Below, one piece after another: positions 59,185-64,000 of a stretch of 64,000 nucleotides of DNA. This stretch comes from Candidatus Brocadiia bacterium (GTDB lineage: Bacteria > Planctomycetota > Brocadiia > SM23-32). Numbering within the stretch: the first letter of the stretch is position 1; each line of letters opens with the position of its first letter. The DNA is taken from assembly GCA_046538485.1 (NCBI GenBank), contig JBKHIT010000014.1, positions 23,083-87,082 on the forward strand, written 5' to 3'. Both the position numbers and the translations under genes were made by a program. Below the pieces are notes generated by a model, which saw only the letters and a list, made by a program, of their open reading frames with translations, was not told the DNA's origin and ran no database searches.

Positions 59185-59233
59185 ATGAAGCAGGCAAGGA
59201 GGCACGTAAAGACCGGATTTACGCTGATTGAGT
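59185..59233 (+). pseudogene. Type IV prepilin-like leader (5' exon) MKQARRHVKTG|FTLIE, interrupted by a group II intron
   Basis: RBS GGAGGT, ATG 59185, basic leader plus GFTLIE N-methylation motif. GTGTG begins after the first base of the next (Leu) codon. Confidence 0.85.
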
Positions 59234-60004
59234 GTGTGCCCAGTTAAGGCTGGGTAAACTTGTTGGGTGTAAGTCCCAATCGTATTAGTTTCTCATTTCG
59301 AATGCGTAGCCTGACTGCCGGAGTCGCGGAACCAACAGAACAGGGGACCGATTCCGATGCGCAGTGACAAAGTCGCGAGACGGGAAACCGCTCCAACTAG
59401 GGCGGGGACTTAAGGTCAGTCGGAGCGGCGAGGCAAACGCACAGACCGCAGGAAAACGAACATCCGAAGGCATCGCAGGAGGTATCCTGACGGAAGTTGC
59501 TGACAGAGTCAGGTGATCCGGTCACTGGCGATCCTTCGTTCGATAGGAGAAGTCCGATGCAGATGGTGAGGAAAATGGTGAGAATCAAGTTTCCGCGAGC
59601 GAAAAGCATGAAGAAGGCGCGAGCAGGAATCAAAGAGCGGGTGAAGAACATACCGCTTGGCGAGCCGCTTAAGGAGGCCATAGGCGCCCTGAACCGCAAG
59701 TTGCGGGGATGGGCGAACTACTTCCGTATAGGCAACTCCTATGAGGCCGCCCGGGAGCTGACAGCTTTTGCGTGTCAGCAACTGCGTTTGTACCTGCGCC
59801 GCCGTCGAGCTCGCAAGGACATCGTCGGTTACCGGCGATGGCCGAACGGTTTCTTCCATGAGAAAGGGCTGGAATATGTGCCGAATCTACTGTAATCCCG
59901 CGACTGCGGGACTGTCTGCGAAATCACAGCGTGGAAAGCCGGGTGGGGTCCCGCGGCCGCGGGAAGACGCACGGTTTTATCAGGGTAAGTGGACAGCCCA
60001 GTAC
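59234..60004 (+). mobile_element. Group II intron, internally deleted copy (5' domain I, maturase X-domain remnant, degenerate domain V); 3' end approximate
   Basis: 5' GUGUG, GGGU-GNRA-GUCCC hairpin and GGCAAAC…GGAAAACGAAC domain-I motifs. Maturase ORF. D5-like AAGCCG…ACGCACGGTTT at 59936-59977. Confidence 0.85.
59557..59895 (+). CDS. Group II intron maturase-specific (X/thumb, GIIM-like) domain without RT
   Basis: PRAKSMKKARAGIKE…IGALNRKLRGWANYFRIGNS…LRLYLRRR…KGL; no YADD/RT domains; AGGAG 7 nt before ATG 59557. Confidence 0.8.
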   Translation: MQMVRKMVRIKFPRAKSMKKARAGIKERVKNIPLGEPLKEAIGALNRKLRGWANYFRIGNSYEAARELTAFACQQLRLYLRRRRARKDIVGYRRWPNGFFHEKGLEYVPNLL

Positions 60005-60108
60005 GGGGGAGCATGGAAATGGAGGAGGACTTCGTTTGACTTTTTTTTTTGAATATACTATGCATATGCGCTGTCGATACGTCGACTCTTATATGAGGAG
60101 GCAGAAGA

Positions 60109-60204
60109 ATGCGTGAGTGGAAAGCAGGAAAAAGGTTGGGCTTTACTTTAATCGAACTGAAAAGGGAACACAGGGCGTTTGAACACAAAATCCGGGCTAA
60201 ATAA
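60109..60204 (+). pseudogene. Orphan prepilin-like leader MREWKAGKRLG|FTLIEL, truncated
   Basis: RBS GAGGAGG and GFTLIEL, then a charged non-pilin tail ending in the MITE-type terminus AAAATCCGGGCTA and a stop. Confidence 0.75.
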
Positions 60205-62727: not shown

Positions 62728-63707
62728 TGAACAGCGATCCGAGAATTGCCATTGTTGGTGCAGGCAGTCTGTCGACCCGGCGCATCTATCCTTATATTGG
62801 CGCTGCCGGCGGGGAGTTGGTGGGCGTGTGCGACCTCGATATCGAAAAGGCCGAGTGCAATGCGCGTCGGTTTGGTGGACGCGTCTATACTGATCTGGAG
62901 AACATGCTGGAGGAGGAACAGCCGGACGGGGTTATCATCTGCATCGGCCCGGAACAACATGCGGAACTGGCGCCCGTTGTGATGAACAGGGGGTTTCCAG
63001 TGTACACTGAGAAGCCACCGGCCGCGTCGGCCACAGCGGCGCTGGAAGTGGCACGCGTATCCGAACAGACGGGAACGCTGTGTACCACGGCGTTTAAAAA
63101 ACGTTATAATAATGCCTATTCCCGTGCAAAAGAATGGTTGAAAGGTTTTGACCCGCTGTCTCGGTATTCCATTTCCGTCGACTACGCGTCAGCCCAGTAT
63201 GATAACGATTCCCCCCGTTCGCTTTTTTTGCTTGATTTCGCCATTCACGTGATCGATCTGATTGGTTTCCTTTTTGGAGATGTGGATCGAGTGTTTGCCG
63301 TTTCAAAGGGGCTGGATGCCTATGCCGTGAGTCTGAAGTTTGCCACCGGCTCCGTGGGGAGTCTCAATTTGAATTGTGGACGCTCCTTCTCCGTGCCCAC
63401 CGAAGAGGTGGAGATTACGGTGGAAGACGGTAATTTCATGACCATCCATAATTCTTCCTGCTGGCGTATTACCGAGGACGGGCAACCGGGCGAGTGGTAC
63501 GAGCCCCCCACTTTTGTTAGTGCCGGGGACAGTGGCAACAATACGGGCCATATGGCGGAAATCGTGGATTTTATGGAGGCCATTCAGCAGGGACGAACCA
63601 CCCGGTCGAATATTTACGAGAGCTACAAGAGCATGGTCCTGTACGAGGCGATCGCTGAGTCAGCGAGAAAAGGTATACCCGTGGATGTGGAATATGCGTC
63701 ATTGTGA
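62727..63707 (+). CDS. Gfo/Idh/MocA family oxidoreductase
   Basis: RIAIVGAG, PDGV, VYTEKP, DFAIHVID; start overlaps the upstream stop. Confidence 0.9.
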   Translation: MNSDPRIAIVGAGSLSTRRIYPYIGAAGGELVGVCDLDIEKAECNARRFGGRVYTDLENMLEEEQPDGVIICIGPEQHAELAPVVMNRGFPVYTEKPPAASATAALEVARVSEQTGTLCTTAFKKRYNNAYSRAKEWLKGFDPLSRYSISVDYASAQYDNDSPRSLFLLDFAIHVIDLIGFLFGDVDRVFAVSKGLDAYAVSLKFATGSVGSLNLNCGRSFSVPTEEVEITVEDGNFMTIHNSSCWRITEDGQPGEWYEPPTFVSAGDSGNNTGHMAEIVDFMEAIQQGRTTRSNIYESYKSMVLYEAIAESARKGIPVDVEYASL

Positions 63708-63718
63708 AAGGTGCTACG

Positions 63719-63782
63719 GTGAATAGTTATAGTGTCACGAACACATCAGATCAAAGTAAAAGCGCTTTTACGCTCATTGAAC
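63719..63782 (+). pseudogene. Prepilin-like leader (5' exon) MNSYSVTNTSDQSKSA|FTLIE, interrupted by group II intron copy 2
   Basis: GAAAGG RBS, GTG start just after the Gfo stop, AFTLIE. GTGTG begins after the first base (C) of the Leu codon. Confidence 0.8.
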
Positions 63783-64000
63783 GTGTGCTCAGATAAGGCT
63801 GGGTAAACTTGCTGGGTGAGAGTCCCAGTCGCATTAGTTTCTCATTTCGAATGCGTAGCCCGACTGCCGGAGTCGCGGAACCAACAGAACAGGGGACCGA
63901 TTCCGATGCGCAGTGACAAAGTCGCGAGACGGGAAACCGCTCCAACTAGGGCGGGGACTTAAGGTCAGTCGGAGCGGCGAGGCAAACGCACAGACCGCAG
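63783..64000 (+). mobile_element. Group II intron copy 2, 5' end (runs off the window)
   Basis: 218 nt align without gaps to 59234-59451 with 8 substitutions (manual alignment). Confidence 0.88.

Follow-up and report, generated by a model that had tools for sequence, protein, structure and literature searches.

Mobile group II introns of the RmInt1 type combine IIB-type exon recognition with a reverse transcriptase (RT) that lacks an endonuclease domain, and RmInt1 of Sinorhizobium meliloti itself reportedly homes into the multi-copy ISRm2011-2. Group IIC introns have an exon-binding site 1 (EBS1) of 3-4 nucleotides (nt), lack an EBS2 and lie behind terminator or attC hairpins. Some homing endonucleases tolerate third-codon-position variation in conserved genes. 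Here we describe a group II intron family found in a 64,000-nt stretch of DNA from a Candidatus Brocadiia bacterium (contig JBKHIT010000014.1, positions 23,083 to 87,082; G000:C20:23083-87082 in our contig naming, G000 being this genome). The whole stretch is referred to as the window, and all features located in it lie on its forward (+) strand. A small hairpin at 59532-59548 is identified, with a probability of roughly 85%, as the EBS1 stem-loop (the Id3 hairpin of domain I) of a bacterial group II intron family that retrohomes into the DNA encoding Ile-Glu-Leu in prepilin leaders.

Several traits of the family recall RmInt1-type introns. EBS1 lies in the last hairpin of domain I and binds the 5' exon over about 7 nt; a candidate EBS2 is located some 60 nt upstream of EBS1, with one unpaired base between the corresponding intron-binding sites, IBS2 and IBS1; the intron protein has RVT_1 and maturase domains and no endonuclease domain; and the target is a multi-copy sequence. 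Unlike RmInt1, the family targets not a mobile element but the coding sequence of a protein motif shared by paralogues numbering more than 100, its guide has G or U opposite each synonymous site, and the 3' strand of its domain VI (DVI) re-encodes the exon motif. The RT sequence is closest to those of IIC introns, is likewise small and without an endonuclease domain, and belongs to introns with a similar 5' GUGUGCCC start. Unlike IIC introns, the family has a 7-bp EBS1 pairing that covaries, and its sites are found inside coding motifs with no requirement for an upstream hairpin. As homing endonucleases do, it recognises what protein selection keeps constant and ignores synonymous positions, but here the tolerance comes from RNA-DNA wobble in a ribozyme guide, not from protein-DNA contacts.

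The Azotobacter groEL stop-codon intron is said to have ends fitted to the host frame, so that the gene product is still made. In Clostridium tetani, an alternatively spliced group II intron reportedly also has ends fitted to the reading frame of its host (PMC3919590, PMC4024640). Neither of these is known to do what the family described here does: its DVI re-encodes the severed N-terminal signal, and at the 3' junction a homing site of its own is restored. Among titles and abstract openings we found no report of an intron in prepilin, pilin or DUF1559 genes, and no printed account of this target, of G or U placed opposite synonymous sites, or of a DVI that re-encodes a leader.

The hairpin loop as EBS1

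The first of two intron copies in the window (copy 1) begins at 59234, and its hairpin, TCCT-tc-GTTCGAT-AGGA, starts 298 nt into the intron. An earlier, sequence-only reading of the window had described this hairpin, proposed its loop as EBS1 and required that the loop prove to be Id3; the hairpin reads as described, and both proposals are supported by the comparisons below. The structure (59527..59554) has two tiers and a 9-nt loop. Its lower stem of 3 bp pairs 59527-59529 with 59552-59554 and covaries among relatives (AU 4, GC 4, CG 2, GU 1); the upper stem, TCCT/AGGA, pairs 59532-59535 with 59545-59548 over 4 bp and is 100% paired across the family, with 3 compensatory pairs. Because it is the last stem-loop of domain I, just before domain II (DII), and has two tiers, the hairpin sits where Id3 sits.

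The loop sequence GTTCGAT (59538..59544) pairs over all 7 nt with three sequences in the window, as the earlier reading had stated: with ATTGAGT (59227-59233, the IBS1 of copy 1) through three G-U pairs, with ATTGAAC (63776-63782) through one, and with ATCGAAC (60151-60157) through none. When all domain I 7-mers were compared with the exon end of their own intron, the GTTCGAT-type loop was the only one to pair 7/7 in 9 of 10 copies; L184B, the miss, pairs 6/7. We then aligned 16 exon bases and domain I of 11 copies from 9 sources, with relatives drawn from L011, G029, G047 and seven family members among metagenome stretches. EBS1 and IBS1 pair in 75 of 76 cells of this alignment, a value reached by 2 of 500 shuffles; with the register shifted by 1-3 columns, pairing is 16-41%.

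Three of the 7 pairs are changed on both sides. In L098 an A-U pair is replaced by G-C, with exon GTCGAGC (Val codon GTC) facing guide GTTCGAC; in L103 C-G becomes A-U, with exon TAGAGC (ATA) facing GTTCTAT; and in L166 A-U becomes G-C, with exon ATCGAGC (GAG) facing GCTCGAT. A similar correspondence is seen within one genome, G047, whose two intron subfamilies, defined by their 5' ends, partition perfectly by target over nine junctions. Type one is found at GTCGARC in 6/6 cases (GTCGAGC 5 times, GTCGAAC once), and its EBS1, seen in L098, is GTTCGAC; type two is found at (A/G)TAGAGC in 3/3 (ATAGAGC, GTAGAGC and ?TAGAGC), and its EBS1, seen in L103, is GTTCTAT.

Some observations weigh against the identification. 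The single unpaired cell of the alignment is an A-A opposition in L184B; the small hairpin is no more stable than 200 shuffles of it (z = +0.78); copy 1 itself lacks DII and domain III (DIII) and has a disrupted domain V (DV); and the EBS1 of the multi-copy variant is not in the assembly. The 7-mer GTTCGAT is not rare by itself. The hairpin on its own is thermodynamically unremarkable, and the case for EBS1 rests on covariation. The multi-copy variant presumably has the same EBS1, judging from copy 1, from a second fragment on contig C120, and from the public-run rows listed, which show no difference at 59538-59544. A closing stem, GCATCG/CGATGC, around the EBS region was considered and dropped, as it holds in only part of the family.

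The sequence-only reading had found no convincing EBS2. A candidate does exist: some 60 nt upstream of EBS1 stands a conserved AAGGUAA, complementary to UUACUUU at exon positions -15 to -9, so that a single exon base between candidate IBS2 and IBS1 stays unpaired. Pairing is complete (7/7) in L147, L166 and L184B, and L166 shows the one compensatory change. In copy 1 the candidate EBS2 reads GAGGTAT (59479..59485, alignment columns 359-365; AAGGTAA in most relatives) and pairs with 4/7 of the candidate IBS2, TTACGCT (59219..59225). Over the alignment 57 of 70 cells are paired and shifted registers yield 21-49%, but 114 of 500 shuffles reach that score. AAGGUAA is a weak EBS2 candidate and no more. 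An alternative, GGTGTAA at intron position 33, lacks conservation and reaches 7/7 pairing in no copy but that of the window.

Target sites and wobble pairing

The interrupted genes encode proteins with a prepilin-type N-terminal cleavage/methylation signal (TIGR02532 / PF07963), consisting of GFxxxE followed by a hydrophobic helix; the L011 product, for example, matches TIGR02532 with 22.1 bits and N_methyl with 21.7, and also matches DUF1559. Eight 5' junctions were identified in the G000 assembly, five of them at contig ends, and all lie behind codons for F-T-L-I-E. The occupied 7-mers are ATTGAGT, ATTGAAC, ATCGAAC (3 times), ATTGAGC, ATCGAGC and ATTGAAT. The insertion logo predicted from the sequence alone, ATYGARY, is therefore followed at 8/8 sites in this genome with 6 spellings; among relatives with GUUCGAT it also holds at 5/5 complete sites. 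The splice point lies behind the first base of the Leu codon, and every natural junction has T as its first exon-2 base, so that no EBS3-IBS3 or delta-delta' covariation is possible.

Occupied sites carry 0-3 G-U pairs. All 13 G-U cells of the EBS1/IBS1 alignment fall at 3 synonymous columns (-1 Y, -2 R and -5, the third base of the Ile codon), and none at the other four. The guides keep G or U at these positions even where their own flank has T or G, L166 excepted. With G, U and G opposite the synonymous sites, one guide pairs with all 8 ATY-GAR-Y spellings, ATA not being fully paired. This pattern matches a guide that reads the protein motif rather than one spelling of it. We propose that the family retrohomes into the Ile-Glu-Leu DNA of the GFTLIE|L prepilin cleavage/methylation motif, which more than 100 pilin-like (N_methyl/DUF1559) genes per genome have in common. 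The EBS1, 5'-GUUCGAU-3', pairs at all 7 positions with the end of the exon, AUY GAR Y, and since the cut follows the first base of the Leu codon, the next base is the invariant U of YUN.

The genome holds 148 coding motifs for F-T-L-[IV]-E, of which six are intron-borne and 142 genuine. With G-U pairs allowed, 100 of the 142 pair 7/7 with GUUCGAU, compared with 26 by Watson-Crick pairing alone. All eight occupied sites fall among the 100, a result that is not significant (hypergeometric P = 0.055). ATA-Ile had been proposed as the exception to the degenerate reading. None of the 37 ATA sites is occupied, and the lineage found at ATA/GTA sites carries GUUCUAU, in keeping with that proposal, but the avoidance of ATA is not significant, the confinement of occupancy to pairable sites having P = 0.055.

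It has to be asked whether the codon-degeneracy of the loop, taken as EBS1, is incidental, the guide being the complement of an ancestral or commonest spelling, ATCGAAC, with a general tolerance of G-U pairs and no selection for G or U. GUUCGAU is the exact complement of ATCGAAC, which is tied with ATAGAAC as the commonest spelling (26 each of 142), accounts for 3/8 occupied sites, and forms the 3' tail of several family members; complementing its C, A and C yields G, U and G automatically, so that the wobble capacity could be a by-product. L166 has C at a wobble position, opposite GAG, which makes it a specialised, non-wobble guide, and L184B has A at one. These points, together with the non-significant site preference, count against a guide shaped for breadth. 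Against an incidental guide, GUUCGAU is kept over the 13 G-U cells where flanks have T or G, with no replacement by A or C except in L166; 5/8 occupied sites have 1-3 G-U pairs, roughly in proportion to spelling frequency; and the guide changed where targets shifted to ATA or GTC, which argues that the loop evolves under target pressure. We consider the incidental guide unlikely, though it retains real weight. The term codon-degenerate, used in the earlier reading, fits the pairing and the sites, which span synonymous spellings; adaptive design of the guide is plausible. The choice of G and U may have been selected for breadth, and wobble sites may be used as efficiently as perfect ones.

Intron 3' ends and domain VI

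In the C44 copy, L166, the two introns of L184, and L216, a canonical DVI follows DV. Its 3' strand and tail read GGC TTT ACT TTA ATC GAA C or a close variant, encoding (G)F(T/S/L)LI(E/V) in frame with exon 2 (..LLVVIAII..). Six of 7 DVIs are paired at 12-13 of 13 positions, a bulged A at -8 and an AC tail are present in 7/7 intron tails, and the changes are compensatory, for example UA to GC where the Ile codon is ATA or ATC.

The 3' boundary is seen repeatedly in G000. Five contigs (C99:1-51, the minus-strand end of C118, the minus-strand end of C138, C140:1-51 and C143:1-54), examined alongside loci L242-L244, begin with the same 48-54 nt, ending GGCTTCACTCTAATAGAAC, and diverge right after the next T into five different pilin bodies with different exon-2 codons. 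Folded, this shared segment gives a canonical DVI (-31.8 kcal/mol, z = -7.4), in which both the bulged A and the 2-nt tail are present. Its loop has an in-frame ATG that opens MRLWRRG|FTLIE, and tail plus exon 2 reads MRLWRRGFTLIELLVV. Products started from this ATG match TIGR02532 with 35.1 and 35.3 bits (cut-off 16.3) and N_methyl with 34 bits, the GFxxxE half of the TIGR02532 match being intron-encoded. The exon-2 frame is open through DV and DVI (60-315 nt) in 5/5 introns with a visible 3' end, and start codons lie at most 14 codons from G|F in such introns. Assembly breaks of G000 cluster at the leader motif.

In the window, DVI of copy 1 (59978..60157) has an insertion of about 150 nt and a damaged 5' basal strand. 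Inside it, a Shine-Dalgarno-like GAGGAGG and an ATG (60095..60111) open MREWKAGKRLGFTLIE, and its 3' strand and tail, GGCTTTACTTTAATCGAAC (60139..60157), copy the leader codons G-F-T-L-I-E. The sequence-only reading had placed a third leader here, which we revise: rather than an independent gene start, this last segment is probably the 3' end of the intron itself. The same strand is found in the DVIs of the family. L011 has the layout of the window, and its frame continues into a DUF1559/N_methyl protein. The DVI interiors of the two (144-147 nt) align with a score of 16 against -8.2 +/- 5.2 for shuffles, reached by 0 of 1000, and the insertions are near-equal in length (177 and 180 nt). In L011, GAGGTGA of the DVI 5' strand complements TCACCTT of that element's own distal leader, the difference from relatives being compensatory. 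These observations together support the DVI reading. An earlier candidate for the 3' end, near 60059 (..GAATATAC), was dropped because DVI pairing and the five identical 3' junctions place the end after ..GAAC.

The segment 60109-60157, like its counterpart in L011, might instead be the promoter, untranslated region (UTR) and leader of a neighbouring host pilin gene, brought adjacent to the intron by a deletion that took away the original 3' half of DVI and the remainder of the first gene. The upstream exon of L011 and its downstream UTR/leader resemble diverged duplicates, both with ..AGGACAATG..ATGCGTAA.., each after TTGAC..TATAAT; an intron fragment in L089 has an intact pilin gene about 650 nt away; and contigs of the public run X3 match 60109-60158 behind different upstream sequence and continue into pilin bodies. 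No pilin body is found behind 60157 in the window, which also weighs against the main reading. Against a host origin stand the compensatory complementarity of the L011 strands and the similar interiors and lengths of the two insertions, and the GFTLIE-coding strand lies demonstrably within the repeated element in the members with a compact DVI. We therefore regard a captured host leader as doubtful, with roughly the same standing as the incidental guide, and continue with the segment as part of DVI.

Across the family, the 3' strand of DVI with its 2-nt tail encodes (G)FTLIE anew in the frame of exon 2, and the DVI loop adds a start codon in several lineages. Because DVI supplies both a start codon and (G)FTLIE, the severed gene may keep a usable leader without splicing, and the internal start codon would be translated. 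Such a rescue of the leader is plausible as an adaptation. We put forward, tentatively and at somewhat less than even odds, that the family is co-adapted to one protein motif at both ends, with a wobble EBS1 and a leader-coding DVI, as a phenotypically silent retroelement.

Independence of the insertions

The insertions lie at unrelated flanks. Over 7 window-type copies (21 pairs), the 60 nt upstream of the motif are 31% identical in ungapped comparison, whereas the first 42 intron bases are 97% identical over the same pairs and fully identical in six of the seven copies, which indicates independent insertion events. The targets belong to a single large set of paralogues, and the shared position could in principle stem from duplication of an already interrupted pilin gene, in which case the site spectrum would be uninformative on guide tolerance; the disparity between flanks and intron ends, and the five 3' junctions at which an identical intron tail meets different exon-2 codons, make this very improbable. 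Still less credible is a coincidental complementarity, with the true EBS1 or recognition by an intron-encoded protein located elsewhere: the hairpin is weak and the Rfam domain I model covers 59261-59456 only, below its gathering threshold, but the loop is the only 7/7 match of domain I in 9/10 copies and is backed by the three two-sided changes and by the partition of subfamilies by target.

Family membership and relatives

In its parts and in the principle of EBS1-IBS1 recognition, the element is a standard group II intron. GTGTG (GUGYG) forms the 5' end at all 26 junctions examined, including those at 59234 and 63783. A 2067-nt sister copy on contig C44, 80-82% identical to the window copy, has an open reading frame (ORF) of 424 amino acids that matches TIGR04416 (group II RT/maturase) with 415 bits (cut-off 300) and contains RVT_1 and GIIM domains but no endonuclease domain. 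The nearest solved relatives of this RT are IIC-type (7uim, E = 4e-61; 6ar1, 9e-58), compared with 9e-49 for a IIB RT and 2e-42 for LtrA. Across the family, DV precedes a DVI whose bulged A lies near the 3' splice site, and DV/DVI of L166 matches RF00029 with 43.5 bits (gathering threshold 40), the end of the match coinciding exactly with the inferred 3' splice site.

At gathering thresholds, Rfam identified only a tRNA over the window. At a relaxed threshold RF02003 (group-II-D1D4-4) matches 59261-59456 with 39.2 bits, below its gathering threshold of 49, as do L166 (41.3) and L011 (37.1). RF02003 is the nearest described model of domains I-IV, and by the Rfam threshold these sequences are not members of it.

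At the level of the order, the intron was found in 2 of 32 genomes, G000 included, and in a sample of the phylum 6 of 401 genomes matched at E <= 0.001, four of them through matches of 25-42 nt only. The genome of L011, whose RT is a 72% identical relative, holds a single copy. A metagenome scan with a conserved 16-mer returned 119 stretches, 7 of them in the family; the same scan of viral contigs returned 7 stretches and no family member. Among the loci with related RTs, nhmmer matched domain I only in L011 and, weakly, in L018; most of the others, lacking such a match, are other intron classes and were set aside.

Loci from Victivallales were rejected as family members, being IIC-like introns placed after terminators. 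Four of them from Victivallales/Lentisphaerae (L019, L022, L031 and L034) are distant RT relatives that lie right after GC-rich terminator hairpins with a T-run. L013/L014 (Cardinium) and L018 (Terriglobia) have RTs of 42-56% identity and seem to lie inside IS256-type transposase genes near conserved ..C..H codons; with boundaries that are approximate, these would be a further case of a multi-copy gene whose conserved motif houses a related intron. In the family member L107 (2290-3008), a second group II intron, unrelated and equipped with an RT ORF of its own, apparently splits DVI, forming a twintron. L166 contains an ORF-less derivative some 840 nt long.

Intron copies in the window

Copy 1 follows a first 5' exon (59185..59233) that comprises a start codon, the prepilin-type leader MKQARRHVKTGFTLIE and the first base of the Leu codon; the leader codons directly before the intron read ATG..GGA TTT ACG CTG ATT GAG T. 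The copy spans 924 nt (59234..60157), its 3' end being set by DVI pairing and by the 3' boundary of the family, and is a derivative from which the RT domain, DII and DIII are deleted. It skips positions 323-1631 of the 2067-nt copy (G000:C44:128384-126318), a segment with which DIII, the RT domain and one half of DII are gone. At the internal deletion junction (59578..59583) the DII loop is fused to the coding region of the maturase domain, and the remnant ORF (59497..59895) retains the maturase (X) domain only (Pfam GIIM, 45.6 bits). DV (59938..59977) is aberrant in comparison with its relatives, with a palindromic insertion in place of the upper helix and one mutated base pair; at 59950-59967, where the upper helix and tetraloop are expected, a perfect palindrome, CCCGCGG/CCGCGGG, is found. 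A distinct sequence, CCCGCGACTGCGGGAC at 59897-59912, recurs beside an unrelated repeat common to contigs C74 and C120.

The deletion of RT, DII and DIII, the DV insertion and the damaged basal stem of DVI show that copy 1 is a decayed member of the family. It probably no longer splices, and its loop is a fossil of the guide mechanism. A fragment at G000:C120:1-565, cut at both ends, extends from about intron position 143 to just past the ORF stop and has the same internal deletion junction; the RT-deleted form is thus present at two places.

The second copy (63783..64000) follows a 5' exon region (63704..63782) with a leader ending SAFTLIE (..TTT ACG CTC ATT GAA C), its IBS1, ATTGAAC, lying at 63776-63782. 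Only its first 218 nt are present, 96% identical to copy 1, as the contig ends before EBS1.

Public-run (Logan) data were used as contigs, the depth figures of which give neither a ranking of regions nor copy number, and parts of the window left uncovered in runs X2, X3 and X11 are no evidence of absence. At 59578, public-run contigs continue into DII behind the junction or into RT-ORF sequence before it, and from 59948 onward the DV of one X3 contig is normal; hence undeleted copies exist in such samples.

Two metagenome contigs, L216 (81-408) and L184 (reverse strand, 1-1423), carry introns joined head to tail, without an intervening exon. The L184 pair consists of a full-length intron and, behind it, an ORF-less derivative (about 870 nt) in which domains I-III, DV and DVI are retained. 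The junction of intron tail and exon 2 recreates the homing site, which would explain such head-to-tail pairs. In RNA run X11 a contig joins 22 nt of intron tail (..ATAGAAC) directly to the first intron base (window 59234); this could be a tandem-copy transcript or a full-length intron circle. Domain I contigs of the same run have far higher depth figures than those of the ORF part, contig depths being unable to rank regions. A further arrangement, at L089:1259-2300 (G029:C151), consists of a leader exon (..EFTLIE) and domain I only, with the intact pilin-like gene some 650 nt later, and resembles the leader-intron-leader layout of the window and L011.

Significance of the family

The usual account has group II introns avoiding host genes or relying on splicing for harmlessness. 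The family described here takes a different route, by targeting a stretch that protein selection keeps constant across a huge paralogue family. With wobble pairing, this genome offers 100 usable sites instead of 26, and the family apparently carries a replacement for the coding sequence that its insertion severs. It provides a natural example of degenerate-guide rules, relevant to the design of retargeted introns, and its DVI is a testable case of an RNA helix that doubles as an N-terminal coding region. It also explains the assembly breaks at leader motifs in these pilin-rich bacteria. If the proposed mechanism is true, the DVI helix would be under simultaneous selection for RNA structure and protein coding, and an invaded gene would still make a cleavable prepilin without splicing, with a Shine-Dalgarno sequence also supplied by the intron in some lineages.

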